Source: a virus
Virus record (IMG/VR): IMGVR_UViG_3300037313_001570
Location: 1 to 54,803 of that record
Strand: one strand, 5' to 3'
DNA length: 54,803 bases
The notes under the pieces are model-generated. The model had not been told where the DNA came from. It made no database searches and saw only the letters and a list, made by a program, of their open reading frames with translations. Position 1 is the stretch's first letter. Each line of letters opens with the position of its first letter. The position numbers were made by a program, and so were the translations under genes. This document shows positions 7,919-54,803 of the stretch, piece after piece.

Positions 7919-8166
7919 TGTCGCATAAAATTATTCAATACTTTAAATCTATTGGTATAAACGAATTCAAGGTAATGTTTGCGCTATATAATATAGAGGA
8001 TAGCGAAGATTGGCCTTGGATTCGTTTATATAATAGAGTTATCCCAATTACAAAGAATGAATTTATTCATAAACGTTGGAATGATTTTTGCGCTTATGTA
8101 AATAATCATAAAGAACTTTATTATAAATATTTCAGCAATGACAAAAGTAAAATCGATCTTCGTTAA
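7915..8166 (+). CDS. hypothetical protein (83 aa)
   Basis: ATG ORF whose ATGA overlaps the upstream stop. Confidence 0.55.
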   Translation: MMSHKIIQYFKSIGINEFKVMFALYNIEDSEDWPWIRLYNRVIPITKNEFIHKRWNDFCAYVNNHKELYYKYFSNDKSKIDLR

Positions 8167-12779: not shown

Positions 12780-12809
12780 GATAAAATATTTTTTGGAAGA
12801 CAAAAATTA

Positions 12810-12842
12810 TTTGTTCGTTAAAAAAGACACTTCGTATATTTA
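12810..12842 (+). promoter_or_regulatory. candidate Bacteroidota-type promoter
   Basis: TTTG at 12810-12813 and TATATTTA at 12835-12842 with a 21-nt spacer, upstream of the ATG at 12877. Confidence 0.4.
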
Positions 12843-12876
12843 CATTCTATTAAATAAAAAAACCAAATATTTAATC

Positions 12877-13365
12877 ATGGCAAAGAAATCAAAAGCAGAA
12901 TTACAAAAAGAACTCTCAGCTGGTAAAAGTGTTGCAGAAGTTGCAGCCGAAAATAATCCAGAAACTATTGATGCAAATGTAGCAATTGAAAATTCTAAAG
13001 CTACCGAAGCGCCTAAAGAAACCCCGAAGGCACCCGGCAAGATTAAACAAATCTTGGATGCATTTAAATCAGGAAAAACAAATAAAGAAATCGCTGCAAT
13101 GTATGTTTTGGATGCAGATGGTAAGCAAATTCCGACAGGAGAAAATGATAAAGATGGCAATCCCATCTTTGAAACATTTCACCCAACTACAATCAGCATT
13201 CAGGTTTCAAAATACAAAAAAGCAAATCCGGATCTTTATCCTCCTCAACCTCCAGCCCCAACTAAGAAAGAACTCGCAGAAAAAGCAAAAGCAGAAAAAG
13301 CGGCTGCAGAAGCCACTAAGCAATCGGCAAGTGCAGAAGCCGATGTTGCTAACGTTCAAGGATAA
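12877..13365 (+). CDS. Lys/Ala/Pro-rich protein with HTH-like segment (162 aa)
   Basis: The ATG at 12877 (MAKKSKAELQ) is preferred over track start 12679, which overlaps queC. GKIKQILDAFKSGKTNKEIAAMY resembles the HTH of the 25715/27857/28329 family. AEKAKAEKAAAEA tail. Confidence 0.6.
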   Translation: MAKKSKAELQKELSAGKSVAEVAAENNPETIDANVAIENSKATEAPKETPKAPGKIKQILDAFKSGKTNKEIAAMYVLDADGKQIPTGENDKDGNPIFETFHPTTISIQVSKYKKANPDLYPPQPPAPTKKELAEKAKAEKAAAEATKQSASAEADVANVQG

Positions 13366-13890
13366 ATGAAAATTAAATTTCTGATTCTACTTTATTTTAT
13401 TTCTATCATAAGCGCCAATTTACTTATTCAGTTTTTTGGCGTTTATGCTCTTTTAGCTAGTAGCTTTATTCTTATCCCTTTTGATTTTGTAATAAGATGT
13501 ATTTTGCATGAAAAATGGAAAGGGAAACAACTTATAATACGCTTATTCTTGCTTACATTTCTTGCATGCATAACGACTTATGTAATTAATCAAAAGAGCG
13601 AAGATATAGCTTTGGCTTCAATTCTTGGTTTTACTTCTGCACAAGTAATTGCAGGAATTTTCTATCAAATAAATAAGAGTAGATCTTGGTTTATGAAAGT
13701 AAACATAAGCGATTTATTAGCTATTATATTCGATAGTATTGTTTTCCAGCTAACAGCTTTTTCACACATAAATCCTTTAGTAATATTCTTCCAAATAAAT
13801 ATAAAATTCGCTGGCGGTTTATTATGGTTCTTCATCTTATTTAAATTCTTCAAAATTCAAAATTCCTTAATTAATGAAAGAAATATATAA
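13366..13890 (+). CDS. YhhQ/VUT-like membrane protein (queuosine-precursor transporter family candidate)
   Basis: Polytopic membrane protein inside the preQ0 cluster; IFDSIVFQLTAF is a DS..F-type motif. Assignment is from context and memory of the family. Confidence 0.5.
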   Translation: MKIKFLILLYFISIISANLLIQFFGVYALLASSFILIPFDFVIRCILHEKWKGKQLIIRLFLLTFLACITTYVINQKSEDIALASILGFTSAQVIAGIFYQINKSRSWFMKVNISDLLAIIFDSIVFQLTAFSHINPLVIFFQINIKFAGGLLWFFILFKFFKIQNSLINERNI

Positions 13891-24053: not shown

Positions 24054-24085
24054 TTTGGAGTGTGCGAATATGCGATGTATATTTG
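24054..24085 (+). promoter_or_regulatory. Bacteroidota sigma-A-type promoter (TTTGGAG class)
   Basis: TTTGGAGT at 24054 and TATATTTG at 24078-24085, with an exact 20-nt spacer. Confidence 0.6.
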
Positions 24086-25196: not shown

Positions 25197-25238
25197 AACT
25201 TGCCTCCAATATATTCAAAAAATATTTGGAGGCAAGTT
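25197..25238 (+). terminator. long hairpin whose 3-prime arm is the -33 box of the next promoter
   Basis: AACTTGCCTCCAA (25197-25209) pairs perfectly with TTGGAGGCAAGTT (25226-25238); 13 bp, extendable through ATAT with one bulge. Confidence 0.5.
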
Positions 25239-25256
25239 GTATCGAGCTTATCTTTG
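25225..25256 (+). promoter_or_regulatory. Bacteroidota sigma-A-type promoter (TTTGGAGG class)
   Basis: TTTGGAGG at 25225 and TATCTTTG at 25249-25256, 20-nt spacer. Shares TCGAGCTTATCTTTGGTATA with the promoter at 27629. Confidence 0.6.
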
Positions 25257-25714: not shown

Positions 25715-26113
25715 ATGTCAGGCGCAAAATTAATAATCGAAACTGGCGTTAAGCCGGGAGCAGGTAAGCAAGTTAAGCCAGCCAGCAATAAAAAAATAAC
25801 CTGTGAGGAATACCTTGCAAGGTTGGCGGATCGTGCAGAAGAAGGGGAAGAAGAAGGCTCTGGTAAGATTGTAACCATACTTCGGCTATACCGTGCTGGT
25901 TATACGCGAAGCGAAATTGTAAAGGCAGGTTTTAATCGAAGTACAGTATACAGGCAATGTGGCGAATACGAAAAGTTGCGTAGGGCACCCGCGACCTCCT
26001 ATTATGGATTTGAGCTTTACGAAGCACGTGTGCAGCGTGTTATGAAAAAGAAAGGTCTTACACGGGACAAAGCGATTGAATTTATTACCGAACAAGATAT
26101 CAAAAATGACTAG
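25715..26113 (+). CDS. HTH DNA-binding protein, paralog A (resolvase/Hin-type HTH-like)
   Basis: GKIVTILRLYRAGYTRSEIVKAGFNRSTVYRQ. Confidence 0.65.
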   Translation: MSGAKLIIETGVKPGAGKQVKPASNKKITCEEYLARLADRAEEGEEEGSGKIVTILRLYRAGYTRSEIVKAGFNRSTVYRQCGEYEKLRRAPATSYYGFELYEARVQRVMKKKGLTRDKAIEFITEQDIKND

Positions 26114-26115
26114 GA

Positions 26116-26358
26116 ATGCATAAGAATAGAACCGCCAAAGGTCTTGCATTGCAAGAAAAACACAATCTTTCTTATAAGAAAAGATTAATAGGAAAGCAGC
26201 ACATAGACGGCAGAAAGGTTATTAATTGCGAATATATTGGCAATAGTGTTTATGGAATTATTAAGGTCTATTTCGAAGATAATAGTAATATACTCATTGG
26301 ATCTCAAAGTTTTAGACCAACTAATAAGGATATCTTAAACAATGGCATTATTCTTTAA
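26116..26358 (+). CDS. hypothetical protein (80 aa)
   Basis: ATG ORF. Confidence 0.55.
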   Translation: MHKNRTAKGLALQEKHNLSYKKRLIGKQHIDGRKVINCEYIGNSVYGIIKVYFEDNSNILIGSQSFRPTNKDILNNGIIL

Positions 26359-26360
26359 TT

Positions 26361-26446
26361 GACCGCATAGCTCAAGGGTAGAGCGTTGACATAAGTTTGT
26401 AGCTATTTTTAATGCGAAGATATCGGTTCGACCCCGATTGCGGTTA
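26361..26446 (+). tRNA. tRNA-like element or possible pseudo-tRNA (86 nt) lacking a canonical anticodon stem
   Basis: Acceptor stem GACCGCA/TGCGGTT (G1-U72). D arm GCTC-AAGGGTA-GAGC. T arm ATCGG-TTCGACC-CCGAT. Discriminator A, no encoded CCA. The central 36 nt do not form a 5-bp anticodon stem by hand folding. Confidence 0.5.
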
Positions 26447-26476
26447 CTCATTCTAAAAAAATAAAAAACAGAATTT

Positions 26477-26686
26477 ATGAAACGCATTTTTATCTCATTC
26501 ATTATTGTAACCACTATTACAACCTCTTGTCAAAAAGAAACTCTGCCGACTCCTATAACCATTATTATCGACAATAAACCATTCCCGGCAGATAGTTTCC
26601 CTAACCCAATAAATTTAGATTCATTGGTTAAAAAACACAAGGGAACCTATAACCCAAGTGGTACATCCATTGTGAAGCACCATTAA
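26477..26686 (+). CDS. small lipoprotein
   Basis: MKRIFISFIIVTTITTSC: a signal peptide with a lipobox-like Cys. Confidence 0.6.
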   Translation: MKRIFISFIIVTTITTSCQKETLPTPITIIIDNKPFPADSFPNPINLDSLVKKHKGTYNPSGTSIVKHH

Positions 26687-26733
26687 ACCAGCGGAGTTAT
26701 TATTTATTCATAAAAAAATCAAAATTCACAATT

Positions 26734-27018
26734 ATGCCAAGAAAAGAAAAACAACATGCCGAACCAAGTACTAACGATGAAGTTACACAGGAACTTCCAA
26801 AAAAGCACATGGTTGAAGTGTATACCGATCAAGGCTATCAGGGCGAATGCATATTTGATAGCGAGGAAGATGCAAGACTATATTATGATCAGCGTTTACT
26901 CACAGCAGTTAAAATTGGTTTGAAAGAAGACAAGCAAACAAATTTCAGTATTCATTGGTATGTGGATGGCGAACTTAAGCGCGAGTATGCTATCGAGCAT
27001 AGCGTGTACGAAATTTAA
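26734..27018 (+). CDS. hypothetical acidic protein (94 aa)
   Basis: ATG ORF. It shares a conserved 5-prime leader with gene 27857. Confidence 0.55.
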   Translation: MPRKEKQHAEPSTNDEVTQELPKKHMVEVYTDQGYQGECIFDSEEDARLYYDQRLLTAVKIGLKEDKQTNFSIHWYVDGELKREYAIEHSVYEI

Positions 27019-27024
27019 TTAATC

Positions 27025-27059
27025 ATTGGCCGTATTATATAAGGGTATAAGCGGCCAAT
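27025..27059 (+). terminator. hairpin after gene 26734-27018 (no clear U-tract)
   Basis: ATTGGCCG (27025-27032) pairs with CGGCCAAT (27052-27059), with an inner TTATA/TATAA pairing. Confidence 0.4.
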
Positions 27060-27130
27060 AAATTCTGCCCTTATGAACTTAACAAAAGAGCAAGCATTAT
27101 TTGCTATTCGAAGATTTAATATTTTCCTTT

Positions 27131-27316
27131 ATGAAAAAAGTAAATTGGGATAATCCGCCTTCTCATGCATTAATGAATAGAATACTTCTATTTTGGGTAT
27201 TCATTCTAACTGTTATGCTTATCATAACTTATTGTATGCTTAAGGATGATAATTTATTTTCTAATCAAAAAATACAACAACATGGATCTTCACCAGTTAA
27301 ACAAGCAGGAAATTGA
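27131..27316 (+). CDS. small membrane protein (61 aa)
   Basis: ATG at 27131. TM segment ILLFWVFILTVMLIITYCML. Confidence 0.5.
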   Translation: MKKVNWDNPPSHALMNRILLFWVFILTVMLIITYCMLKDDNLFSNQKIQQHGSSPVKQAGN

Positions 27317-27533
27317 TTTATTAATCGAAGGATTAGGCGAATTACCAATCGCCTCAAAGGAGCACAGCCAGAAATTTTTATCTAACATGTTAAAGCATGT
27401 TACAGATAAGACAACAACTCAAGATGATATAGAAAAATTGTGCAAAGAAGACGAAAAGGCATTGAAGAAACGCGAGGAAGATGTTTCTTTACTTAAAGCG
27501 AAATTAATTAACCATCGTCGATCTTTGGCATAA
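27282..27533 (+). CDS. hypothetical coiled-coil protein (83 aa)
   Basis: ATG at 27282 (MDLHQLNKQEIDLL). Confidence 0.5.
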   Translation: MDLHQLNKQEIDLLIEGLGELPIASKEHSQKFLSNMLKHVTDKTTTQDDIEKLCKEDEKALKKREEDVSLLKAKLINHRRSLA

Positions 27534-27542
27534 AAAATGCTA

Positions 27543-27594
27543 TTCCCGGCTCGCATTAAGGCGTATGGTTGAACCTAAACCGGGAACCATAAAA
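27543..27594 (+). ncRNA. G+C-rich pseudoknot-capable element carrying the GAACCTAAACCGGG motif
   Basis: TTCCCGG (27543-27549) pairs with CCGGGAA (27580-27586), and ATGGTT (27565-27570) pairs with AACCAT (27585-27590), in an interleaved arrangement. The motif recurs at 28192-28224. Confidence 0.4.
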
Positions 27595-27628
27595 TGTTCA
27601 TAATTTTGAACAAAAAGTTTTCTAAAAA

Positions 27629-27660
27629 TTTGGAATATATTGATTTCGAGCTTATCTTTG
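27629..27660 (+). promoter_or_regulatory. Bacteroidota sigma-A-type promoter with no ORF downstream (orphan or tandem)
   Basis: TTTGGAAT at 27629 and TATCTTTG at 27653-27660, 20-nt spacer. Confidence 0.55.
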
Positions 27661-27726
27661 GTATAATAAAACTCTGGCGTGTATTATTAAAATGTTCATA
27701 ACTTATTCAAATTTATTAGAAATAGA

Positions 27727-27758
27727 TTTGGAGGCAATTAAAAAAGTTCTTATCTTTA
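27727..27758 (+). promoter_or_regulatory. Bacteroidota sigma-A-type promoter (TTTGGAGG class)
   Basis: TTTGGAGG at 27727 and TATCTTTA at 27751-27758, 20-nt spacer. Confidence 0.55.
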
Positions 27759-27773
27759 ATATATCAAACAAAC

Positions 27774-27822
27774 GCAGGGGCAGCTGACAAGGACTGCTAA
27801 GCATATCCCTCGAAACCCCTGC
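27774..27822 (+). promoter_or_regulatory. structured 5-prime leader hairpin of gene 27857
   Basis: GCAGGGG (27774-27780) pairs with CCCCTGC (27816-27822), enclosing a G+C-rich 35-nt insert between the promoter and the ATG. Confidence 0.45.
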
Positions 27823-27856
27823 AATTTTTATTTATTCATAAATTAAAAATTCACTT

Positions 27857-28060
27857 ATGTCACAAGCTCAAAAAACTCGTAAAGGTCGCATGACTGCGAA
27901 AGAATTCGCCAAGAAAACTTTCAAGGGTAAAAACCTTGGAACCATTGAACAGATTGTTAAACTTGGTATGAAAGGGTTTACACAAAAAGAAATTATCGAC
28001 GCAGGTTATAACAGAAACACAGTGTACCGCCAGTACCGCGAACAGGTAGCCAACGCGTAG
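27857..28060 (+). CDS. HTH DNA-binding protein, paralog B (67 aa)
   Basis: GTIEQIVKLGMKGFTQKEIIDAGYNRNTVYRQ. Confidence 0.65.
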   Translation: MSQAQKTRKGRMTAKEFAKKTFKGKNLGTIEQIVKLGMKGFTQKEIIDAGYNRNTVYRQYREQVANA

Positions 28061-28328
28061 TGATCCCATACCAACAAAGGGCCGAACCTTAAACCTCTGG
28101 GTATGTAGGAAAGGCAAGGCTGGTTAATCCGGTGACGTACTACATAACTGACCGAATAAAGGTAGCAACCGAACAAAGGTTGTTATGTAGGGGCGTGGGT
28201 CGAACCTAAACCGGGTTCATAAAACTACATAGTTCGCAGAAATGTCAGGCATGGCATTCGTTAGGCGTAGCATCAAAAGCAGGCTATGTAGTTTTTAGCT
28301 CTTTTAAATAACCTCATAATCTACCGCT
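28061..28328 (+). ncRNA. candidate structured noncoding or cis-regulatory RNA (268 nt)
   Basis: No ORF. G+C is about 50% by hand count. Alternating TATGTAG (28102, 28184, 28285) and CTACATA (28140, 28225) arms. The last helix is followed by T5 at 28292-28296. Confidence 0.45.
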
Positions 28329-28766
28329 ATGGCAAGACCAAATCGAATTATCGTTACACATGTACAGTCTGTTAAGATTCAAACACTATTAAAAGCGGAT
28401 AACGGCAAAGCACCCGTCCAGGAATTAATTGACACTATTGTTAAAGATGCCGAAGTGGAAGAATGGGTGGCTAAGCGTTTCGCCGATGCATGGCGTTGGA
28501 ACCACAGGAATGATAACGATAATATTGAACCTAAACCTGAAAAAAAGGAGGAGCTTTTCTACACAAGTAGGCCATTACCTGAGATGAAAAAGAAAGGCAC
28601 AACAAGCAACCCGGAAAACGGAACTGGTAAAGTAGCACAAATTATTCAGCTCGCACAGCAAGGCAAGAGTGTACAGGAAATAATTGAAATGGGATTCAAC
28701 AAAAGCACAGTTTACAGGCAGGTTAGCGAATGGCGTAAACGCACTAAAGAACAACAACACGCGTAA
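28329..28766 (+). CDS. HTH DNA-binding protein, paralog C (145 aa)
   Basis: GKVAQIIQLAQQGKSVQEIIEMGFNKSTVYRQ. Confidence 0.65.
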   Translation: MARPNRIIVTHVQSVKIQTLLKADNGKAPVQELIDTIVKDAEVEEWVAKRFADAWRWNHRNDNDNIEPKPEKKEELFYTSRPLPEMKKKGTTSNPENGTGKVAQIIQLAQQGKSVQEIIEMGFNKSTVYRQVSEWRKRTKEQQHA

Positions 28767-30140: not shown

Positions 30141-30632
30141 ATGGCAAACGAAGGAAATAAATGGTGGGAACGTCGATGCAAACATGGAAGAGGCATGCTA
30201 TTCTCCTCCCCTCATTTAATGTGGGAAGCTGCCTGCGAATACTTTAAAGCAGAAGACGAAGCTACTTATTTACAAAGACGCGATGTCGTTGGAACTTATC
30301 AAGGAACAGTTATTGCAGATACAGTGACGTGCAAAGTCCCATATACATGGGAAGGTCTTTGTCTCTACATGCATTGCAGTACAGGTTACTTTCGAAACTT
30401 CCGTGCAAAGCTAAGGAAGGAACTTGCTGAGGGAATTAATGTCGAAGTAAACGAAGATTTCAAGACGGTCGTCGAAACAATTGAGGATACAATACGAAAA
30501 CAACAAATGGACGGAGCTCATGCTGGTCAACTTAAGGAAGGACTTGTTACTCGTTACTTAAAGATCGCAGACAAGACAGAAATAAGTACGCCAGAAGATC
30601 AATCGTTTAACGTGACTTTAAAACTTGATTAA
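30141..30632 (+). CDS. terminase small subunit-like protein
   Basis: GRGMLFSSPHLMWEAACEYF ... VPYTWEGLCLYMHCSTGYFRNF matches the common TerS N-terminal pattern (F-x-SPEEL..EYF ... PxTxxGL). Confidence 0.55.
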   Translation: MANEGNKWWERRCKHGRGMLFSSPHLMWEAACEYFKAEDEATYLQRRDVVGTYQGTVIADTVTCKVPYTWEGLCLYMHCSTGYFRNFRAKLRKELAEGINVEVNEDFKTVVETIEDTIRKQQMDGAHAGQLKEGLVTRYLKIADKTEISTPEDQSFNVTLKLD

Positions 30633-30891
30633 TATGAATTACGATCCATATGGAGAAATGAAAAGGGAAGGGAGAGCTATCTTGTTAGGATTAGTAATAG
30701 GAACTCTAGTTCTTATTATCTGTTCTATTTTCGCAAGTTGTCAAGAAAACGAAAAGAATCATTGCGTCGTAAATATTCCAACAGGCGAAAATGAAGTATG
30801 TTGCTCCCGCAACCAGATGGATCAATTGTTCAAATCTATTACCCTACATAATAAAGAAATCGATACGTGTGTGCATATCCGTCAGAAATAA
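30625..30891 (+). CDS. small membrane protein (88 aa)
   Basis: TM segment AILLGLVIGTLVLIICSIFASC. Confidence 0.5.
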   Translation: MINMNYDPYGEMKREGRAILLGLVIGTLVLIICSIFASCQENEKNHCVVNIPTGENEVCCSRNQMDQLFKSITLHNKEIDTCVHIRQK

Positions 30892-30943
30892 AATCATTGA
30901 GGAATTGTTTAAGAGCAAAGACTTCAACGATTGCATTAAGAAG

Positions 30944-31465
30944 ATGCAGCCAGTTGAATTGCAGGATGATTTAAAAGCAGAAGTAACCCTAACCCTATTA
31001 GAACTTGACCATAATAAACTTATTCAAATCCATAATTCCGGAGGGTTAAAATATTATGCAGTTCGAATAATCCTTAATTCTATTCAAAGTAAAACGAGTC
31101 CATTCTATAAGAAGTACCGTTCTCGCACATACGAATTCTTTGAAAACAATATTCAATCTATCGCATATGATTTCTCAGACGATCATTATGCAGATAAAGA
31201 AAAAATAAAATGTGATTCAAATAATCCAGATGAAGAACAAGAGCAATTTAACAACCGCCTATGCAATGAATTAAAAGAGTTGAAAGTAATGGATATTATT
31301 AATGGACTGTATTGGTATGATAAAGAGATGGTAAGATTGTATATCGAACTTGGTTCATACCGTAAAATCGAAGAAGCTACTGGGATTGCATGGAGAAGTT
31401 GTTATGATACTATACAATCAGCATTTTCAAAAATTAAATATGAACTACGAAGACAACACAATTAA
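30944..31465 (+). CDS. sigma-70/ECF-like sigma factor (alternative TTG start at 30905)
   Basis: Region-2-like DLKAEVTLTLLEL...YYAVRIILNSIQSKTSPFYKKYR and region-4 HTH EMVRLYIELGSYRKIEEATGIAWRSCYDTIQSAFSKIK. Confidence 0.55.
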   Translation: MQPVELQDDLKAEVTLTLLELDHNKLIQIHNSGGLKYYAVRIILNSIQSKTSPFYKKYRSRTYEFFENNIQSIAYDFSDDHYADKEKIKCDSNNPDEEQEQFNNRLCNELKELKVMDIINGLYWYDKEMVRLYIELGSYRKIEEATGIAWRSCYDTIQSAFSKIKYELRRQHN

Positions 31466-31778
31466 GATTATCGTATATGCTTTGGCGTGTGCATTCTTTT
31501 TGAAGACAGAGACAATGCCAATAATTCGTTCTTTTCTATTGACAAGGTTAAGAACTTACTGGTATAAGAAGTATAAAGAGTTTAATAATAGATACGATAA
31601 GATTAAAAATAGGATTATAACACCTTTTAGACCATTTGACTGTCTTGGTTGTATGACATTTTGGTCTAGTATCGCATTAAATTATTCTTTGCATTATAGA
31701 CACGATTATATACCTGTTGGGATAGTGGGGTTCTTTGTGGGAAGTATCGTAGAAGGTATTATGATGCGATGGCTATAA
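31440..31778 (+). CDS. membrane protein (112 aa)
   Basis: ATG at 31440. TM segments and a CLGCMTFW motif. Confidence 0.5.
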   Translation: MNYEDNTIKIIVYALACAFFLKTETMPIIRSFLLTRLRTYWYKKYKEFNNRYDKIKNRIITPFRPFDCLGCMTFWSSIALNYSLHYRHDYIPVGIVGFFVGSIVEGIMMRWL

Positions 31779-32529: not shown

Positions 32530-32756
32530 CTTATCTAATTGATGGCGGTGGTGGACATTACGTTCATGTCAGTGAAGAAACATTTAAAAATGAATTAGAT
32601 AAAGCTATTAAAAGAGATTGCCCAACTGTTCTAGGAATCTGCCATAATGGTTTAATGATTCATATGTATGTTCCAAAAGATAGATGGTATTTTAAATTAC
32701 TAGGAAATTCGCAAGTTCGCGGATGGTTTATAAAACCAAGAACAACTAATATATGA
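32526..32756 (+). CDS. hypothetical protein (76 aa)
   Basis: ATG ORF. Confidence 0.55.
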   Translation: MTYLIDGGGGHYVHVSEETFKNELDKAIKRDCPTVLGICHNGLMIHMYVPKDRWYFKLLGNSQVRGWFIKPRTTNI

Positions 32757-33802
32757 TATTCGGTTTAATAAATAAGAATAGTGGCCCGGGATTTCATCGC
32801 ATACACGTTCCTTTATTATTAATGAAAGATACAGACGTATTCATTACGAACGCTGTTGAAGAAAAGCATTTTGAAGAAAAACAACCAACAACAATCTTCT
32901 ATAACCGAACTATTAGCGACGATATATTAAAGCTTCAAAGCAAATATCAATTTAAGATTGCCGTAGATGTCGACGATCATTGGTATTTAAACCCATCACA
33001 TATTCTTTACGAATACCACATGGCTAATAGAATGCCAGAGCATCATATTAAACATATCCGATTAGCGGATGTTGTTACAACAACTCACGAACGATTGGCT
33101 GAAAAGATTTATCCAATTAATCGAAATGTAGTCGTAATCCCAAACGCTATTCCAACACACGAACAATTTTTCCCTACGAAACGTATTCGTGCATCAAGAG
33201 ACGTTAGACGTATTTTCTGGCAGGGAAGTTCAACGCATGCGGAAGATATTGCTTTGCTTAAAGGGCCAATGAAGCGGCTGGATAAAAATAAATTTATGGC
33301 AATTATGGCTGGTTATACGCGTGAACAAGAATGGCAGAATGTGAATTTGCAAACAAGATCTGGATTGAATTTAAATTTTGATTATTCAAAAGGATTTACA
33401 AAGACGGAACAGGTATGGGATAGGATGGTAACGATGTTTACTAATGGTCTTCGGTTGCCCGGTTTAATTCTTCAGGGAACTTCTGTTGAAAAGTATTATA
33501 AGAATTATAGAGTCGCAGATATATGCGTAGCACCTTTAGTAGATAACGAATTTAATAGCATGAAAAGTAACTTGAAGATACTGGAAGCTGCGCATATGGG
33601 ATTGCCTGTTATAGCAAGCCATGTTAATCCATATCTTAATATGCCGGGTGTTATGTATGCAGAAAAGCAGAGCGATTGGAATAGATGGTTCAATGCAGAG
33701 ACGGCAGTATTAGAAGCTGCTGCGAACGAATTAAAACGTTTCTGCGACGAACATTATAACTTTGATAAGATTAATGAATTAAGAAAAAATGCGATTATAT
33801 GA
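32753..33802 (+). CDS. glycosyltransferase (GT-B, GT4/GT1-like)
   Basis: C-terminal KSNLKILEAAHMGLPVIAS (E-x7-G-x-PVI signature). Confidence 0.6.
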   Translation: MIFGLINKNSGPGFHRIHVPLLLMKDTDVFITNAVEEKHFEEKQPTTIFYNRTISDDILKLQSKYQFKIAVDVDDHWYLNPSHILYEYHMANRMPEHHIKHIRLADVVTTTHERLAEKIYPINRNVVVIPNAIPTHEQFFPTKRIRASRDVRRIFWQGSSTHAEDIALLKGPMKRLDKNKFMAIMAGYTREQEWQNVNLQTRSGLNLNFDYSKGFTKTEQVWDRMVTMFTNGLRLPGLILQGTSVEKYYKNYRVADICVAPLVDNEFNSMKSNLKILEAAHMGLPVIASHVNPYLNMPGVMYAEKQSDWNRWFNAETAVLEAAANELKRFCDEHYNFDKINELRKNAII

Positions 33803-34038
33803 AACAATCGAATATTGATTTTCTTAATGCTAATCGTCACCATTACGAAATGTGGGTTAAGGCGCAAATAGTTAATCATCTCGATCAGGCAACTCGTCAA
33901 CGCATGTTAGATGTTATACGCGATGAATGGGATGGAAGATATTTAGCCAATTTGTGGTGTTCGCCTTGCGTTGTATCAATGCTCGTCTATGCATATACGC
34001 AATACGATAAATGGTTGTTGCAACAAAATGTCCAATAG
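33799..34038 (+). CDS. hypothetical protein (79 aa)
   Basis: ATG ORF overlapping the upstream stop. Confidence 0.55.
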   Translation: MKQSNIDFLNANRHHYEMWVKAQIVNHLDQATRQRMLDVIRDEWDGRYLANLWCSPCVVSMLVYAYTQYDKWLLQQNVQ

Positions 34039-34087
34039 AAATGCAAAGGATAATTAAGACTTTTGTTAACTTGTTCCAAAATTAATT

Positions 34088-34903
34088 ATGGCACTTATTG
34101 CAATGGCCGTATATGATACGAAAGAAAACGGCAGGACAGAATTTACAAGACGTACTATAAAGTCTTTACTTAATACGGTTGATTTTTCTAATCATCGTCT
34201 TATAATAGTTGATAATAACAGTTGCGCAGAAACATGCTCCTTTTATAACGATTATGTATATCGTCAAAATCTTATTTTGCAAGAACACGGTAAAAATAGA
34301 ATTGAAGTTATTCATCTTGATAAAAACTATGGGACTGCTGCTGCTATTAATCAAGCTATGTTCGAAAGAGAAAAAGACGAATACTTTATTAAAATGGATA
34401 ATGATGTTGAGTTTAATAAAGTCGATTGGGTTGAAGAGATGGAAGATGCAATGAGGCGAATGCCGAAGTTGGGAGTTCTTGGTTTAAAACGGAAAGATGT
34501 ATGCGAATCAACTTATTCTTTAAATCCAGATCAGCGTTCTAGATTAATCGAAGTCCCACATTTTATTGGCGAGAAATGGTATGTGATAGAAGAATGTAAA
34601 CATGTAATGGGAACTTGTACAATGTTATCACATGCATTAATTGAAAAGATTGGTTACTTCTATCAAATGGATGGGATATATGGATTCGATGATTCGCTTA
34701 TGTGTATTCGTTGTTCTAAGGCTGGTTTTATTAATGCATTTCTTCACGGAATCGAAATTGATCATATAGATCCAGGAGGCGGAGATTACCAGAAATGGAA
34801 GGAAGAGTATGCGCAGAAAATGATTCATCAATATGCAGAATGCCAACGCATGTACGAGAATGGAACAATGAGTATATATTATAATCCTTTTGAAAAATGT
34901 TAA
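34088..34903 (+). CDS. family 2 glycosyltransferase (GT-A)
   Basis: LIIVDNNSCAET, NYGTAAAINQ, and the DxD motif MDNDVEF. Confidence 0.75.
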   Translation: MALIAMAVYDTKENGRTEFTRRTIKSLLNTVDFSNHRLIIVDNNSCAETCSFYNDYVYRQNLILQEHGKNRIEVIHLDKNYGTAAAINQAMFEREKDEYFIKMDNDVEFNKVDWVEEMEDAMRRMPKLGVLGLKRKDVCESTYSLNPDQRSRLIEVPHFIGEKWYVIEECKHVMGTCTMLSHALIEKIGYFYQMDGIYGFDDSLMCIRCSKAGFINAFLHGIEIDHIDPGGGDYQKWKEEYAQKMIHQYAECQRMYENGTMSIYYNPFEKC

Positions 34904-35103
34904 TAAAGAATGATTTTAATTTTGAAGAAACAGTCTACTTAAAGACTGATATAAATCAGTATCCAAGAATTATAACAGGTATTTGCGTTCGACCTACTGG
35001 TGGTATTACTTATGAATTATCTAGCGGAGGCGCAACCACTTGGCATTATGGATTCGAATTGGATAAAGAGAAGAATGTTTTAATGAAGAATGAAAATTAT
35101 TAA
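34897..35103 (+). CDS. hypothetical protein (68 aa)
   Basis: ATG ORF. Confidence 0.5.
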   Translation: MLIKNDFNFEETVYLKTDINQYPRIITGICVRPTGGITYELSSGGATTWHYGFELDKEKNVLMKNENY

Positions 35104-35105
35104 TC

Positions 35106-35462
35106 ATGAAAAAATCAAAAGTCGTAAAAATAGAATCAGAGCAAATTTTATTTGATAATGGTATTAAATTGTCTTCTAATCATAATCAGGATTGCTGCGA
35201 AAGTCGTTATTTGCAATTTGAGCATCTAACGTTATCTGATTTTGATGGGCTTGAATTTGATTTAACAGGAGACGATTTCTTTAAACGTATTGAAGGATAT
35301 GGAATTGAGTTAATACCAATTAAAGGATTCTCTGTTAGAGTTCCAGGTTATGCTTCAAACAATGGTTATTATTCGGATAATTTAGATCTTGTGCTGACAG
35401 ATGCCAATGGGAAGTTAATAAGAGAATATGACATTACGGAATGTCAGAAATATGAAGACTAA
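35106..35462 (+). CDS. hypothetical protein (118 aa)
   Basis: ATG ORF. Confidence 0.55.
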   Translation: MKKSKVVKIESEQILFDNGIKLSSNHNQDCCESRYLQFEHLTLSDFDGLEFDLTGDDFFKRIEGYGIELIPIKGFSVRVPGYASNNGYYSDNLDLVLTDANGKLIREYDITECQKYED

Positions 35463-35470
35463 AATTTCAC

Positions 35471-35518
35471 GTGCGCGGAACCGTTGGGCAGTTGAGCAAT
35501 ACGGAGAATGCCGCGCAC
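35471..35518 (+). terminator. G+C-rich stem-loop (8 bp, 32-nt loop) after 35106-35462
   Basis: GTGCGCGG (35471-35478) pairs with CCGCGCAC (35511-35518), with an inner CCGT/ACGG pairing. No strong U-tract. Confidence 0.4.
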
Positions 35519-35540
35519 ATTTCTTTAAATTGATTTAAGA

Positions 35541-36227
35541 ATGGTTGTAATAACATATATCTATTCTAAGAATGAACGTACGCAACAAATGATCGATTCG
35601 TTTAAACGTTTTGGTTATGAAGTTGCAATAGTTGATGCAGATACGCATAGAGGCAATGGAACCGCGCTTCGACTCTTATATGAATGTTATAAACGTGCAG
35701 CAACCGGCCATACTTCATTCATGTATGCAGATGCAGCCGATTCTTTTTGTCAACGAAAATTCTTTAGCCCATACGATAAGATAATCTACCAAACAGAAAA
35801 GGCTTGTTACCCTCATACTTGGGTTGCTAACCACTACCCTAACTTGCCATCGCCATACTCTACATCTCCATGGAAGTATCTTAACGGGGGTGGTTATTGC
35901 GGTTCTCCTTCTCTTATGGTGGAATTTATGGAACGGTATGGTCTAAACGATTTACCACCGGAAGCAAATGGCCAACACGAGCAAATGATGGCATATATAC
36001 AAGCTCGTAAAGACGGCTTTCCGATTGAATTGGATTTGAGTTGTGAATTATTTCAAAGTATGGCATTTGCAGAGCAGGAAGATTTTTGCATAAAAGAACC
36101 ATTAAGACCAATCGAAGATAATAAAAAATATTCAAAATATCTTTTCAACACTATAACAAAAAACATTCCGGCAGTATTGCATTTTAACGGACTAACAGAT
36201 ATGTCTATACTTAAGGAATTAAAATAA
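35541..36227 (+). CDS. putative GT-A-like glycosyltransferase (weak)
   Basis: YADAADSF and LNGGGYCGS resemble PLOD/GT25-type motifs. Located in the sugar island. Confidence 0.35.
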   Translation: MVVITYIYSKNERTQQMIDSFKRFGYEVAIVDADTHRGNGTALRLLYECYKRAATGHTSFMYADAADSFCQRKFFSPYDKIIYQTEKACYPHTWVANHYPNLPSPYSTSPWKYLNGGGYCGSPSLMVEFMERYGLNDLPPEANGQHEQMMAYIQARKDGFPIELDLSCELFQSMAFAEQEDFCIKEPLRPIEDNKKYSKYLFNTITKNIPAVLHFNGLTDMSILKELK

Positions 36228-36272
36228 GTTTTTCTGGATACCAATTTACAGTCAATAATTGTTAAGCTTTTC

Positions 36273-36303
36273 CCCGGTTGTTTTTACAACTGGGTTTTCT
36301 TTT
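36273..36303 (+). terminator. rho-independent terminator
   Basis: CCCGGTTG pairs with CAACTGGG (one G-U pair), loop TTTTTA, then TTTTCTTTT. Confidence 0.7.
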
Positions 36304-36323
36304 AAAAAATTAAATCTAGTCAT

Positions 36324-37073
36324 ATGGCACAAGGAGCACACAAGATTACGGAACAATTTGAACAGGAGCTTTGTAAATATACCACAGCTCCTTATTGCAT
36401 CGCGGTTGATAATTGCAGTAATGCATTATTCTTAGCATTGTATTATGAGTTATGGATTAACAAATCAATTCCTTTTAATAAATATAATATTACTAAAGGA
36501 ATATATCAACCAGTTATTACAATTCCGCGCCACACATATCCTTCTGTCGCTTGCGAAATAATACATGCAGGCGGGAAGATAGAATGGGTTGATAATCTTT
36601 ATCATAAAGATAAAATAGAAGGCGCATATCAACTCTTTCCAACTAAAGTTATTGATTCGTCATTGCATTTTACAAATAATATGTACAATTCAGGAAAGCA
36701 CATGTGCTTATCCTTTACAGGCCCTTATAAGCATTTGAAGTTAGGGAAGGGCGGAGCAATAATTACAGACGATTTAAGATTCTCAATGTGGGCGAAACGA
36801 GCAAGATTCAGCGGACGTAACGAATGCAGTTATTTTGAAGATGATTTCGATTGTACAAAAACATTAGAATACGAGTACTTTGAGGATAAAGATCCTGAAC
36901 CAATAAATCGCGCAGCTATTGCCGGTTGGAATTTCTACATGATGCCAGAAATTGCTGCGCGAGGAATTCTATTATTGCAACAATTCTACGACCGAGATGG
37001 AAAACCGAAATCAAACGAAGACCTTTGTATGGCATATCCTGATTTGTCAAAGTTTAAAATATTTAATCAATGA
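36324..37073 (+). CDS. DegT/DnrJ/EryC1-like sugar aminotransferase (short form)
   Basis: IAVDNCSNALFLAL, ITIPRHTYPSVACEIIHAGGKIEWVD and SFTGPYKHLKLGKGGAIITDD (candidate PLP Lys). 249 aa, against about 370 for typical members. Confidence 0.55.
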   Translation: MAQGAHKITEQFEQELCKYTTAPYCIAVDNCSNALFLALYYELWINKSIPFNKYNITKGIYQPVITIPRHTYPSVACEIIHAGGKIEWVDNLYHKDKIEGAYQLFPTKVIDSSLHFTNNMYNSGKHMCLSFTGPYKHLKLGKGGAIITDDLRFSMWAKRARFSGRNECSYFEDDFDCTKTLEYEYFEDKDPEPINRAAIAGWNFYMMPEIAARGILLLQQFYDRDGKPKSNEDLCMAYPDLSKFKIFNQ

Positions 37074-37444
37074 TAGATACAAGAAAGAAATGTCCTTGTT
37101 GCGGCCAATATATTCTTCCAAATGGCAATGAAGAGGTAGAAAATATAAAAAAACTATACCAAGAAGTTTGCGAAATTTGGGGAATAAAAATCGAATGGCT
37201 GAGAGGAAGAGGAAGGAAAGAAGATAAACCTATAATGAAAAAGATTCTATGGATGTTAGCTGAGAAGAAATATCCATTCGTGCCTTATAGAATTCTTGGA
37301 ATTTTATCAGGTAATAAAGATCATTCTGGTGTTATTAAAGGAATTGAAGTTGCTAATAATTGGCTATCCGTGAAAGACGAAAAATTTATGAATTATTATA
37401 ATCAAGTTAAATATTTAATCGAATATGATACAAATAATCGGTAA
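37070..37444 (+). CDS. DnaA domain IV-like HTH protein with N-terminal CxxC
   Basis: KKILWMLAEKKYPFVPYRILGILSGNKDHSGVIKGIEVANNWL parallels DnaA ...LAKELT..SLPEIG..FGGRDHTTVLHA.RKIE. Confidence 0.55.
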   Translation: MIDTRKKCPCCGQYILPNGNEEVENIKKLYQEVCEIWGIKIEWLRGRGRKEDKPIMKKILWMLAEKKYPFVPYRILGILSGNKDHSGVIKGIEVANNWLSVKDEKFMNYYNQVKYLIEYDTNNR

Positions 37445-38090
37445 GGGAGGATTTGGAAGAGAGCTTGCAGCATATTGCGAAGCGTTTAATATTCCATCGT
37501 TTCAATTTGAAAAAGAATGTAATGGCATGCATAGAGGCGCGGACGCTGTTATTGCGATTGGGAATGAAGAAATAAGAACAAAGGTAACAGAACAATTCCC
37601 TAATCAATCTTGGGGCGTAATAAATTTTGGAAAGAATTACGGTTTCCCATATAATAAAATTAATCGAGGTTGTATTATTTGTCCAGGCACAATTATAACC
37701 GTTAACGTCACACTTGGAATGCATTGCCTTGTAAACATTAATTGCACTATAGGCCACGATGTTTTTATTGGCGATTTCTGTACTATAAATCCAGGAGTCA
37801 ACATTTCTGGTAATGTAAGCATAGGGGCAAACTGCAATATAGGAAGTAATGCTGTCATTAAGAATGGAATTAAAATTTGTGATGATGTTATAATTGGGGC
37901 TGGCGGAGTTGTTGTTAAGGATATAACTGAACCGGGCATATATGTCGGTAATCCAGTTGAAAGATTGGACAGGCGATATTTAAAATCAATTGAATTGGAT
38001 ATTAAATTACTTCGCCATGATACAGATTTATTAATTAAAAAGACAACAAAACTCGACGCAGAAAATTCATTACATCGTCCAATCAAATAA
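37425..38090 (+). CDS. hexapeptide-repeat sugar N/O-acetyltransferase (NeuD/PglD-like)
   Basis: N-terminal IIGKGGFGRELAAY Rossmann-like start. Left-handed beta-helix repeats IGDFCTINPGVNISGNVSIGANCNIGSNAVI. Confidence 0.75.
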   Translation: MIQIIGKGGFGRELAAYCEAFNIPSFQFEKECNGMHRGADAVIAIGNEEIRTKVTEQFPNQSWGVINFGKNYGFPYNKINRGCIICPGTIITVNVTLGMHCLVNINCTIGHDVFIGDFCTINPGVNISGNVSIGANCNIGSNAVIKNGIKICDDVIIGAGGVVVKDITEPGIYVGNPVERLDRRYLKSIELDIKLLRHDTDLLIKKTTKLDAENSLHRPIK

Positions 38091-38092
38091 TC

Positions 38093-39307
38093 ATGGCATC
38101 TATATCCTATACTCGTCCGCCTCTTTATGATTACCAAAAAGCAATTCTAAATTCTCCTGCTCGTTTTACTATATGCGAAGCATCGACGAAAGTTGGAAAG
38201 ACTGCTTCGCATATAGTATGGTTATTTGAGCAGGCACTCCAATGCGTCGCAAATCAATCTGTATGGTGGGTTGCGCCGACATTTAATCAGGCGAAAATCG
38301 CATTTAATAGAATGAAAATTCAAGTTACGTACTCTGGAATATTTAAGAAGATAAATGAAACAAATTTAATAATCGAATTAATTACAGGTGCGAAGATTGA
38401 ATTTAAAACAGCAGAAAAACCAGACAACTTATACGGGGACGATGTATATGCTTTCGTATTTGACGAATTTACACGCGCGCGAGAAGCTGCTTGGTTTGCA
38501 TTGCGTTCGACAATTACTTCTACAGGCGGGAAAGGAAAATTTATTGGGAACGTTAAAGGAAAGAAGAATTGGGGTCACCGCATGGCTATGCGCGCAAAAA
38601 CCGGTGATGATAAAAATTATGCTTACTTCAAAATCACAGCTTACGATGCAGCAAATGCAGGTATGCGGACAAAGGATGGAAGGCCATTCTTAGAAGAAAT
38701 AGAAGAGGCTAAAAGAGATTTACCAGAAAATGTATTTAAGGAATTATACCTTGCCGAAGCAAGTGAAGACGGTAGCAATCCATTCGGCATACAATATATT
38801 GCTCAATGTACATATGAAAAAAGCGATAGAGAAGCCGTCGCATATGGAGTTGATTTAGCGAAGAAAAAAGACTGGACAGTCGAAACTGGTTTAGATAGGT
38901 TTTGTTCCGTGTGTCATGCGAATCGTTATCAAAAGGATTGGAGACAAACGACTCTGTCTATTCTTTCGTTACCACAAAAACCAACAGCGATTGATAGTAC
39001 AGGTGTTGGAGATCCAATTGGAGAAGATCTTTGTAGGAAAAGAGACGATGTTGAATTATTTATTTTTACTCAACGTTCAAAGCAACAACTTCTCGAAGGT
39101 CTTGCAATGGCAATCCAAAAACGCGAAATAACATTCCCAGAAGAATATGCACACGAACTAGAACAGATGGAATTTGTGTATACAAGAACAGGAGTTATAT
39201 ATTCTGTTCCAGAAGGAGAAACAGATGATAGAATTATGTCCCTAGCTCTTGCAAGAAGAAAATGGGAAGCAATTATAACAAGTCTGGGAGGAACTTCCGT
39301 ATGGTAA
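38093..39307 (+). CDS. terminase large subunit
   Basis: YDYQKAILNS...CEASTKVGKTAS (Walker A-like), YAFVFDEFTRA (Walker B), and C-terminal nuclease-like AIDSTGVGDPIGEDL. Confidence 0.85.
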   Translation: MASISYTRPPLYDYQKAILNSPARFTICEASTKVGKTASHIVWLFEQALQCVANQSVWWVAPTFNQAKIAFNRMKIQVTYSGIFKKINETNLIIELITGAKIEFKTAEKPDNLYGDDVYAFVFDEFTRAREAAWFALRSTITSTGGKGKFIGNVKGKKNWGHRMAMRAKTGDDKNYAYFKITAYDAANAGMRTKDGRPFLEEIEEAKRDLPENVFKELYLAEASEDGSNPFGIQYIAQCTYEKSDREAVAYGVDLAKKKDWTVETGLDRFCSVCHANRYQKDWRQTTLSILSLPQKPTAIDSTGVGDPIGEDLCRKRDDVELFIFTQRSKQQLLEGLAMAIQKREITFPEEYAHELEQMEFVYTRTGVIYSVPEGETDDRIMSLALARRKWEAIITSLGGTSVW

Positions 39308-54676: not shown

Positions 54677-54803
54677 AAAAAAAAATAAAAATGGCACAGA
54701 ATAATTCAAAGAATGAATTAAAAATGAAAATTTATTTAGAATTAAAAAAACAGAAGAATGACGCTAAACCAAGTAATAAATCGGATACAACAAATAAGTC
54801 TCA
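54677..54803. repeat. terminal direct overlap, copy 2
   Basis: Identical to nt 1-127. It contains the start of the ORF annotated at 82-531. Confidence 0.95.

Follow-up and report, generated by a model that had tools for sequence, protein, structure and literature searches.

A terminase-linked locus of sugar enzymes with serotype-like variation in a clade of uncultured Bacteroidota phages

Why does a tailed phage keep glycosyltransferases (GTs) and amino-sugar enzymes upstream of the gene for its large terminase subunit (TerL), and what do these enzymes glycosylate? The question is raised by IMG/VR virus record IMGVR_UViG_3300037313_001570, the whole 54,803-nucleotide stretch of which (the window) was analyzed. 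Nucleotides 1 to 127 of the window are identical to nucleotides 54677 to 54803, and the record is therefore a circularly closed assembly containing a complete genome of 54,676 bp, which belongs to an uncultured phage of soil or freshwater Bacteroidota. A preliminary description of this DNA had proposed a sugar-modification island, inserted between the small terminase subunit gene (TerS) and TerL, with three glycosyltransferase-like genes, a DegT-like aminotransferase, and a NeuD/PglD-like acetyltransferase, and had named virion proteins, DNA, and the host envelope as possible targets. A check of open reading frames (ORFs) and translations found the nine ORFs of that description on the plus strand where they had been placed. 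Profile searches and structure or fold evidence agree on all five enzymes, and TerS and TerL match phrog_606 and phrog_2, respectively; our confidence in the annotation at the enzyme level is high. The most apt description is that of a glycosylation locus which is linked to the terminase, varies in the manner of a serotype locus, and belongs to a large clade of uncultured Bacteroidota phages. Among the three proposed targets, virion proteins are the best supported, the host envelope is possible, and DNA, including the suggested connection with 7-deazaguanine, is the least likely.

The conserved GT-B gene and its variable junction with TerL

The comparison set consists of 85 TerL-anchored loci, including 80 IMG/VR loci that were gathered with a TerL alignment; single-sequence TerL and DpdA scans of IMG/VR gave nothing. 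A homologue of the first enzyme of the locus, a GT-B glycosyltransferase, is located upstream of TerL in 75 of the 85 loci, a count that is not made up of independent observations, as many of the IMG/VR loci are closely related to each other. The stop codon of the GT-B gene overlaps the start of TerL by 10 to 46 nt in 37 of these 75 loci, an overlap that implies transcription together with the late genes and, probably, translational coupling to them. The gap between the two genes is 36 to 192 nt in 13 loci and 0.5 to 6 kb in the other 25; in the window it is 4.3 kb. Among the 10 loci with no GT-B match, 4 have short upstream DNA or a cassette cut by the contig end, 1 is ambiguous, and approximately 5 truly lack the gene. 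The frequency of GT-B in the set is about equal to that of conserved structural genes, and throughout the clade it counts among the near-core genes of the module for packaging and structure.

The synteny spans relatives on 31-kb contigs as well as prophages. In the integrated prophages of Mucilaginibacter pedocola, Ferruginibacter, and Chitinophagaceae, the order is GT-B, a small ORF, and TerL; the small ORF of the M. pedocola prophage, which is integrated next to a helix-turn-helix (HTH) repressor gene, encodes 82 amino acids. GT-B homologues were found in genomes or bins of M. pedocola, Ferruginibacter, Chitinophaga, a Chitinophagaceae genome, Pseudobacter, and Sphingobacteriaceae. The hosts of the clade are Chitinophagales and Sphingobacteriales, namely Chitinophagaceae and Sphingobacteriaceae, and some of its members are temperate. 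TerL itself has more than 4,500 metagenomic homologues (62 to 77% identity among the matches listed) on contigs of up to approximately 58 kb, except for one 172-kb NCBI record. That record (GCA_048223095.1, JBAMKS010003843.1, 171,720 bp) contains the same TerL at three similar places, and its length is about three times that of the longest contigs among the relatives (roughly 57 kb), a sign that the assembly may be concatemeric.

The GT-B protein has 868 homologues of about 320 residues, and its score against PF13692 (28.5 bits) lies above the 27-bit cutoff. The AlphaFold2 (AF2) model, which was built on 37 homologues, has a mean predicted local distance difference test (pLDDT) score of 90 and a predicted template modeling (pTM) score of 0.87, and consists of two Rossmann-like domains with a nucleotide-sugar-binding motif in the C-terminal part; the canonical E-x7-E spacing cannot readily be made out by inspection. 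The best folds in the PDB found by Foldseek are those of the retaining GT4/GT20 enzymes GlgM, MshA, BshA, PglA, OtsA, and PimA (probability 1.0, TM-scores of 0.55 to 0.68). Identity across the clade is 46 to 70%, and the motifs DVDDxW, FWQGSxTH, and FNxxKSNLKxLEA are invariant in the alignment; the gene evolves under constraint. The protein of the window contains an insertion of approximately 28 residues (about residues 194 to 221, nucleotides 33332 to 33415) that is predicted to be disordered and is missing from all 36 aligned homologues. The window itself corresponds to a JGI contig (P0001), and a 260-residue fragment on another such contig (P0241) is 100% identical to the window GT-B over its own length.

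The segment between GT-B and TerL is the sole variable part of the locus, and its modules are mixed and matched between relatives. A small conserved ORF is found in 18 loci, a GT2 enzyme in 17, LH3-type GTs in 10, and the acetyltransferase in 6, while the miniature DegT-family aminotransferase (mini-DegT) is present in only one of the 85 loci (L002), in the window, and in a contig from a genome scan (L087). Other modules in relatives include sugar O-methyltransferases of the TylF, CmcI, and MT24 types, nucleoside diphosphate (NDP)-sugar 4,6-dehydratases/epimerases, a transketolase pair, an ATP-grasp enzyme, and an SprB-repeat protein. TerS is placed between GT-B and TerL in some relatives (e.g., L017). 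Among more distant relatives the junction is usually empty, and in three loci it holds a DNA N6/N4-methyltransferase instead of sugar genes (L008:8155-9654, L042:6014-6640, and L083:4371-5120), one of which is fused to a ParB N-terminal domain. The junction is therefore a general hot spot for accessory genes.

The contig L087, which is binned with Pseudobacter, has the same order as the window: GT-B, two small ORFs, GT2, LH3-type GT, DegT, acetyltransferase, and TerL. Its cassette diverges from that of the window to an extent comparable to the backbone. Two further ORFs of the window, encoding a DUF7448 protein and a DnaA-C-like protein, are not found in L087, where DegT abuts the acetyltransferase, and both are therefore window-specific additions. 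The notion of an island inserted between TerS and TerL thus stands only in part. The segment from GT-B to TerL is indeed variable; on the other hand, GT-B is near-core and coupled to TerL, the GC content over the island is unremarkable with no compositional anomaly, and the L087 cassette has diverged like the backbone. Because of the near-core status of GT-B and this backbone-like divergence, the locus is not a recent insertion but an ancestral one, in which the 5' gene is fixed and the 3' part can be exchanged. The conservation and synteny of GT-B, together with the four-enzyme cassette kept in L087, argue for purifying selection on a coherent pathway. No earlier description of a terminase-linked arrangement of sugar enzymes or glycosyltransferases was found in the literature searched.

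A hot spot of this kind invites the explanation that the genes are auxiliary metabolic morons with no dedicated phage acceptor, which boost or bias the nucleotide-sugar and polysaccharide metabolism of the host from a site of recombination beside TerL. Glycosyltransferases are commonly reported as auxiliary metabolic genes in soil and aquatic viromes, and the junction also takes DNA methyltransferases, a homing-endonuclease-like ORF, and an HTH gene. Nevertheless, the level of identity of GT-B, its invariant catalytic-type motifs, its synteny through to prophages, and the recurrence of the same four-enzyme cassette at backbone-like divergence in L087 speak against such a role, which we regard as very improbable.

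Cassette enzymes, their predicted sugar, and the surrounding genes

The features of the locus are listed in Table 1. The GT2 enzyme scores 53.8 bits against PF00535 (cutoff, 23.3 bits), and the motifs VDNNS and DNDVEF are present in its translation; weak NCBIfam matches to WcaA, TuaG, and a rhamnosyltransferase were also observed. The third GT, previously called only a weak GT-A candidate, turned out to be a solid LH3/R699-type enzyme of the GT_PLOD family, with 49.5 bits against PF25342 (cutoff, 27 bits). Its best sequence match in the PDB is mimivirus R699 (9dyt; 3.4e-5), followed by the GT domain of LH3 (0.022), and the segment PAVLHFNG aligns to PIVVHGNG of LH3. The DxxD-like sequence DAAD at residues 64 to 67 is presumably the metal motif, by analogy with LH3. 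In relatives, LH3-type GTs occur in up to three copies or in forms of 420 to 460 residues, and no homologue was found in cultured phage records. R699 is a collagen galactosyl-hydroxylysine glucosyltransferase, and both LH3 and R699 extend a protein-linked sugar (PMC9546862, PMC12279948). A collagen-like acceptor was considered for the phage enzyme and dropped, since (G-X-Y)n repeats with n of at least 5 are absent from every frame of the genome, except for one Gly/Ser linker at 44560; no lysyl hydroxylase or other 2-oxoglutarate oxygenase was matched in any ORF scanned. By analogy, the enzyme may work like LH3 and R699 on a different acceptor.

The aminotransferase consists of only 249 residues. 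Lys136, in SFTGPYKHLKLGKGG, aligns to the catalytic lysine in SFHPRKTLTTGEGG of 8vr3/8vr5, and neither this lysine nor Asp111 varies among 28 members of the family, which are 209 to 258 residues long; Asp111 would be the residue that pairs with the pyridine nitrogen. For the AF2 model (pLDDT 77), Foldseek returned only sugar aminotransferases and dehydratases of the DegT family, with TMt values of approximately 0.33 to 0.37, i.e., about one third of a length-normalized canonical structure. The two-domain architecture of about 360 to 400 residues is incomplete. Because most of the C-terminal small domain is missing, the protein was not classified as a canonical member, and it represents a distinct miniature subfamily. 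Its homologues number in the thousands and are metagenomic; the best 120 are 54 to 68% identical and 207 to 258 residues long, except for one 317-residue fusion. Judging from the conserved residues and the fold matches, mini-DegT probably works as a pyridoxal phosphate (PLP)-dependent sugar aminotransferase.

The acetyltransferase scores just under the TIGR03570 cutoff (148.7 versus 160.8 bits), and the match starts at model position 42. The match to PglD_N is marginal, and the N-terminal domain is shortened. Its PDB matches are VioB (7txp; 3e-27), PglD (approximately 1e-20), and PerB (approximately 1e-14), and the histidine of the catalytic region, in TIGHD (GHD), aligns to that in IEHE (EHE) of PglD. 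Its closest characterized relatives (VioB, PglD, PerB, and PglB) share one type of substrate, a nucleotide-linked 4-amino-4,6-dideoxyhexose, to whose C-4 amine they transfer an acetyl group. The preliminary proposal that the aminotransferase and the N-acetyltransferase together yield an acetamido-deoxy sugar is consistent with these relationships, from which we infer an NDP-4-acetamido-4,6-dideoxyhexose as the product of the pair. No 4,6-dehydratase of the short-chain dehydrogenase/reductase type was found among the ORFs scanned in the complete genome, which means that the host has to supply the 4-keto-6-deoxy substrate, e.g., from an RmlB or PglF step; some relatives encode a dehydratase of their own. 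The closest cultured mini-DegT is that of Flavobacterium phage immuto (50.6% identity), where the next gene encodes a homologous acetyltransferase (29% identity, 2e-20). In immuto (NC_055915.1, 49.1 to 60.0 kb), an 11-kb cluster carries five or six GTs, a full-length and a miniature DegT, the acetyltransferase, an epimerase, and a methyltransferase.

Table 1. Features of the terminase-linked locus and its flanking genes in the window
Feature	Coordinates	Strand	Matches and remarks
TerS	30141..30632	+	phrog_606 1.5e-28; homologues in relatives carry Pfam GP3_package
Clade-conserved ORF upstream of GT-B	30791..31465	+	homologue in 41 related loci and in prophages L087-L093
GT-B (GT4-like, retaining-type fold) glycosyltransferase	32753..33802	+	PHROG 7162 "glycosyltransferase" 3e-54; PF13692 2e-6
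Small conserved ORF, 79 aa	33799..34038	+	after GT-B in relatives; homologues in 22 loci and also in Mucilaginibacter, Ferruginibacter, and Chitinophaga prophages; no family match
GT2 (GT-A) glycosyltransferase	34088..34903	+	PF00535 3e-14; commonest cassette module, cluster C1, 17 loci
Small ORF, 68 aa	34897..35103	+	homologue at same position in L087; no family match
DUF7448 protein	35106..35462	+	PF24240 3.4e-7; singleton cluster C60, window only among loci compared
LH3/R699-type (GT_PLOD) GT-A	35541..36227	+	PF25342 4.2e-13; cluster C2, 10 loci
Terminator-like GC hairpin and T-run	36273..36294	+	consensus scan only; within the 97 nt that separate the GT_PLOD gene from the DegT gene
Probable PLP sugar aminotransferase, miniature DegT family, 249 aa	36324..37073	+	PF01041 2e-10
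DnaA-C-like HTH protein, 124 aa, pI 9.1	37070..37444	+	between aminotransferase and acetyltransferase; PF08299 2e-6, below cutoff; TIGR00362 DnaA C terminus 5e-5
Probable NeuD/PglB/VioB-class left-handed beta-helix N-acetyltransferase	37425..38090	+	TIGR03570 1.5e-43; cluster C3, 6 loci
TerL	38093..39307	+	phrog_2 1.4e-27; conserved anchor of the locus

The DnaA-C-like protein forms a singleton cluster (C61) and probably lies outside the glycan pathway. The ORF at 30791..31465 has no match in Pfam, PHROG, or NCBIfam, and a possible C-terminal HTH was recognized by eye only. Two small predicted membrane proteins are encoded between TerS and GT-B, at 30625-30891 and 31350-31778 (19-residue hydropathy of 2.9 and 1.9, respectively), the second of which is kept in relatives; they may be lysis or holin-like genes. 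In the island, scans for sigma-70 promoters, terminators, and the Bacteroidota-type promoter pattern gave nothing significant. Outside it, two near-identical Bacteroidota-type promoter-like elements (TTTGGA...CGAGCTTATCTTTG) are located on the plus strand at 25225-25256 and 27629-27660, with a third similar element at 24054; they are possible phage promoters, the pattern overall being not above chance. A tRNA gene of 86 to 87 nt (26361-26447; Rfam, 44 bits; anticodon not named by ARAGORN) lies in a 2.2-kb stretch (26113-28329) with no ORFs of at least 100 codons. In the replication module, the segment 18734-19521 encodes a YspA/SLOG-family protein (PF10686, 1.4e-16) and, after it, a MazG-like PRA-PH pyrophosphohydrolase (PF01503, 1.8e-12). 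A megablast search with the 30- to 40-kb segment gave no match to cultured phages.

Candidate acceptors of the glycan

The reading that we favor tentatively, at close to an even chance, is late, cytoplasmic glycosylation of virion proteins, in which GT-B primes and the variable cassette diversifies the glycan, here by adding a 4-acetamido-4,6-dideoxyhexose. GT-B is the natural candidate for priming because it is conserved, including its N-terminal (acceptor) domain, and during assembly it would attach the initial sugar to a conserved acceptor of the phage, most likely at least one virion protein. The cassette GTs (here GT2 and the LH3/R699-type GT-A) would then extend the GT-B-attached sugar, as R699 and LH3 do on protein-linked galactose. 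One donor would be supplied by mini-DegT and the VioB/PglD-like acetyltransferase, which would convert a host-supplied NDP-4-keto-6-deoxyhexose to an NDP-4-acetamido-4,6-dideoxyhexose of the N-acetyl-viosamine, Fuc4NAc, or bacillosamine type. Cassette swapping between relatives would change the glycan and give rise to phage "glycotypes" analogous to O-antigen serotypes, and the glycan coat might shield the particle, alter its recognition, or change its adhesion. Virion proteins as the target, for which our confidence likewise falls a little below even, would fit best with the late-operon position, the near-core status of GT-B, the O-antigen-like diversification, the protein-glycan relatives of the third GT, the precedents of mimivirus and mycobacteriophages, and the arrangement in Streptomyces phage Zuko.

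The island proteins are soluble: the maximum 19-residue hydropathy is at most 1.56, with no transmembrane segment. No flippase, polymerase, or Gtr-type gene was seen in the island, and the chemistry is therefore expected to be cytoplasmic. These features bear on remodeling of the host envelope, in which the soluble enzymes would act, late in infection or from a prophage, on undecaprenyl-phosphate-linked or other inner-leaflet precursors of lipopolysaccharide (LPS), capsule, or exopolysaccharide, in order to block superinfection, to stop progeny from re-adsorbing to debris, or to divert sugar pools. The folds matched by GT-B do include PglA and PimA, which use lipid-linked acceptors, and WaaG/RfaG-like enzymes are among its viral matches; GT2 weakly matches the polysaccharide GTs WcaA, TuaG, and EpsE; the content of the cassettes mirrors O-antigen and capsular polysaccharide loci; and some members of the clade are prophages. 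Bacteroidota surfaces are also rich in glycans, and some cassettes contain an SprB-repeat protein. The locus has, however, neither an initiating phosphoglycosyltransferase, a ligase, nor a membrane protein of the GtrABC type. Lysogenic conversion of the GtrABC/Oac kind involves membrane proteins near the integrase gene and attachment site, whereas the genes described here lie inside the late packaging operon, with GT-B coupled to TerL in 37 loci, and not beside an integrase gene or attachment site under their own promoter. As the preliminary description had stated, the context is late and no integrase was detected in any ORF scanned of the complete genome. A gene that is kept beside TerL in about 90% of the clade would also be unusual for a conversion moron, and we consider envelope remodeling unlikely.

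The coupling of GT-B to TerL could also be taken as a sign of anti-defense, with a nonstructural protein or a small molecule as the target; for example, TerL, the portal, or another phage protein that host sensors recognize might be glycosylated, or a host defense molecule might be inactivated, and the variable glycan would then reflect an intracellular arms race. The best solved folds (MshA, BshA, OtsA, and GlgM) glycosylate small molecules, and the DNA methyltransferases at the junction of some distant relatives are typical anti-restriction morons. A rare acetamido-dideoxy sugar and multi-GT chains are, on the other hand, typical of surface-exposed glycans and not of enzyme inactivation, and we know of no precedent for such glycosylation, which counts against this clearly improbable alternative.

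The genome does encode FolE, DpdA, QueD, QueC, and QueE (at 9.3 to 14.6 kb by profile searches), in line with the 7-deazaguanine genes noted before. DNA hypermodification would mean that, in the course of packaging or shortly before it, the GTs glycosylate a modified base, perhaps a hydroxylated pyrimidine or a derivative of 7-deazaguanine, in the manner of T-even or TET-associated systems. The position of GT-B beside TerL fits a prepackaging step, and DNA GTs are GT-A or GT-B enzymes repurposed from LPS and teichoic acid enzymes that are sometimes located near terminase genes (bioRxiv 10.1101/2023.12.21.572611). The isoelectric point of GT-B is slightly basic (8.8 in the window; median of the family, 7.8) but was uninformative as a clue to DNA binding. 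Hydroxylated-base enzymes define DNA-glycosylating clusters (bioRxiv 10.1101/2023.12.21.572611; PMC13326640), whereas no thymidylate synthase homologue, TET/5mYOX, or C5-methyltransferase (PF00303, PF12851, and PF00145 type) was found in the Pfam-scanned ORFs, those of the structural module having been scanned with PHROGs only, and thus no known hydroxyl acceptor is expected in the DNA. Since no QueF was seen, the expected base is preQ0, a nitrile that would offer no glycosylatable group. The 7-deazaguanine cluster is located 20 kb away among replication genes, and in the related loci the 10 kb around TerL contained no gene of this kind. Among the viral folds matching GT-B, a DNA alpha-glucosyltransferase comes only in 16th place (TM 0.53), with no specific likeness. 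Furthermore, nucleoside analysis of immuto DNA, whose genome carries the homologous DegT/acetyltransferase/GT cassette, found only dA, dC, dT, and fdPreQ1, with no sugar adducts (PMC10516641). Because of the missing hydroxypyrimidine pathway and the immuto result, we regard DNA as the least probable target, with only a slight chance.

Two further ORFs lie inside the 7-deazaguanine cluster, one of 228 codons with no family match (12679-13365) and one of 174 codons with a weak Vut_1/YhhQ-type (queuosine-precursor transporter family) match (13366-13890). The gene directly upstream of FolE (8138-9358) encodes a 406-residue protein (phrog_1499) that weakly matches SMC-like and PtuA-like ATPases and may be part of the module for DNA modification. 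An apparent link of GT-B to Campylobacter phages was dropped. The records concerned, A145 (MG065645.1) and B15 (MG065650.1), of 146 to 151 kb, look phi92-like and carry the phi92-type GT at the same identity as coliphages, and thus provide no tie to Campylobacter 7-deazaguanine phages.

Several observations weigh against virion proteins as the acceptor. The capsid protein and the putative tail-tube protein lack an evident Ser/Thr-rich extension at the C terminus like those that bear glycans in mycobacteriophages, and only Pro/Thr/Ala-rich linkers are present, in a 274-residue protein, an 893-residue protein, a tape-measure-like protein, and the portal. The solved folds nearest to GT-B act on small molecules or lipid-linked sugars and not on proteins, and their TM-scores are modest. 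No mycobacteriophage homologue of GT-B, GT_PLOD, or mini-DegT was found by tblastn, and the homologous DegT/acetyltransferase pair of immuto sits among nonstructural genes. The approximately five relatives that lack GT-B upstream of TerL indicate that the gene is not strictly essential. Finally, the support from gene position is circumstantial, and the promoter scans were uninformative.

To our knowledge, virion glycosylation of tailed phages has been established experimentally only in mycobacteriophages, and among viruses otherwise in giant viruses. As a broader and more doubtful generalization of virion-protein glycosylation, the whole Bacteroidota phage clade, with thousands of metagenomic members, might use the terminase-linked core GT and the O-antigen-like cassette to generate heritable, exchangeable virion glycotypes, i.e., a coat on tailed phages outside Actinobacteria that is built in part with a previously uncharacterized miniature (approximately 210 to 255 residues) DegT. 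If the locus does glycosylate virions, glycosylated particles would be common among Bacteroidota phages in the environment. The underlying genes would be arranged as in serotype loci, where a conserved enzyme primes the glycan and the other modules can be swapped, and a GT that abuts TerL would make them easy to recognize from sequence. It would bear on the evasion of recognition, the sticking of phages to polysaccharide matrices, and phage diversification, and would add a minimal sugar aminotransferase and LH3-type GTs with noncollagen acceptors to the known enzymes. In a more speculative variant of the clade-wide reading, the coupled GT-B would glycosylate TerL or the portal so that they escape host sensors. 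By default, cassettes of this kind should not be annotated as serving DNA modification or as auxiliary metabolic genes of the host. Cultured handles are available in Flavobacterium phage immuto and in the prophages of Chitinophaga sp. sic0106 and M. pedocola TBZ30, the latter at about 301 to 323 kb of MBTF01000037.

Comparison with known glycosylation systems

The combination of a DegT aminotransferase, an acetyltransferase close to PglD and VioB, and a GT4 enzyme resembles the Campylobacter/Neisseria Pgl pathway (PglF/E/D and PglA) and VioA/VioB. Unlike these pathways, the locus has no dehydratase, PglC phosphoglycosyltransferase, flippase, or oligosaccharyltransferase; the identities are low, and the genes are phage genes in a late operon. 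Systems for phage DNA glycosylation (the alpha- and beta-GTs of T4, TAGT of T6, arabinosylation in RB69 and DLP3, and TET/5mYOX clusters) also combine GT-A or GT-B enzymes with sugar-nucleotide enzymes in variable clusters, sometimes near the terminase. They differ from the present locus in their hydroxylated-base pathway, which was not detected here, and there is no specific fold likeness; the closest cultured relative of the cassette has unglycosylated DNA.

The closest homologues of GT-B in cultured phages belong, like GT-B, to PHROG 7162 and are those of phi92-like coliphages (gp163-166; approximately 33% identity) and Streptomyces phage Zuko (gp4-5; approximately 27% identity). In Zuko, an unrelated actinophage, the genes for a nucleotide-sugar enzyme and the GT-B homologue directly precede an HTH gene and TerL where the structural operon begins, whereas the GT cluster of phi92 adjoins the DNA polymerase gene and not the terminase. 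No other gene of the island is shared with either.

In mimivirus, a 4,6-dehydratase, a PLP aminotransferase, and a PglB-like acetyltransferase lead to Vio4NAc in the fibril glycan, together with GTs and an O-methyltransferase, and the content of the cluster varies between clades (PMC9614988), as does that of the cassette described here. The fibril cluster (R141 dehydratase, L136 aminotransferase, and N-L142 acetyltransferase) thus provides a viral route from a 4-keto-6-deoxyhexose via the 4-amino sugar to the 4-acetamido sugar, with several GTs, for glycans of the virion surface, and of the mimivirus collagen GTs R699 and L230, the former is the closest solved relative of the third GT of the window. 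In contrast, the window is the genome of a 55-kb tailed phage that encodes no dehydratase, collagen-like repeats, or lysyl hydroxylase, and its aminotransferase is truncated to about 250 residues.

Mycobacteriophages offer the precedent among tailed phages. According to two papers that cite Freeman et al. 2023 in Cell Host Microbe (PMC12619734, PMC11256854), glycosyltransferases of the phage make the glycans on the subunits of its capsid and tail tube. In Che8, Rita, and others, soluble GTs are thought or have been shown to glycosylate capsid and tail subunits in the cytoplasm, and the glycan acts as a shield, a scheme similar to that proposed here. There is no sequence homology between the two systems, the host here belongs to Bacteroidota, and glycosylation is here a prediction from the genes. 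The GT genes of cluster F1 lie near the right end of the genome (PMC11256854) and not beside TerL as in the present phage. Unlike the mycobacteriophage systems, the locus described in this study combines a clade-wide core GT with a hypervariable cassette that carries its own amino-sugar synthesis.

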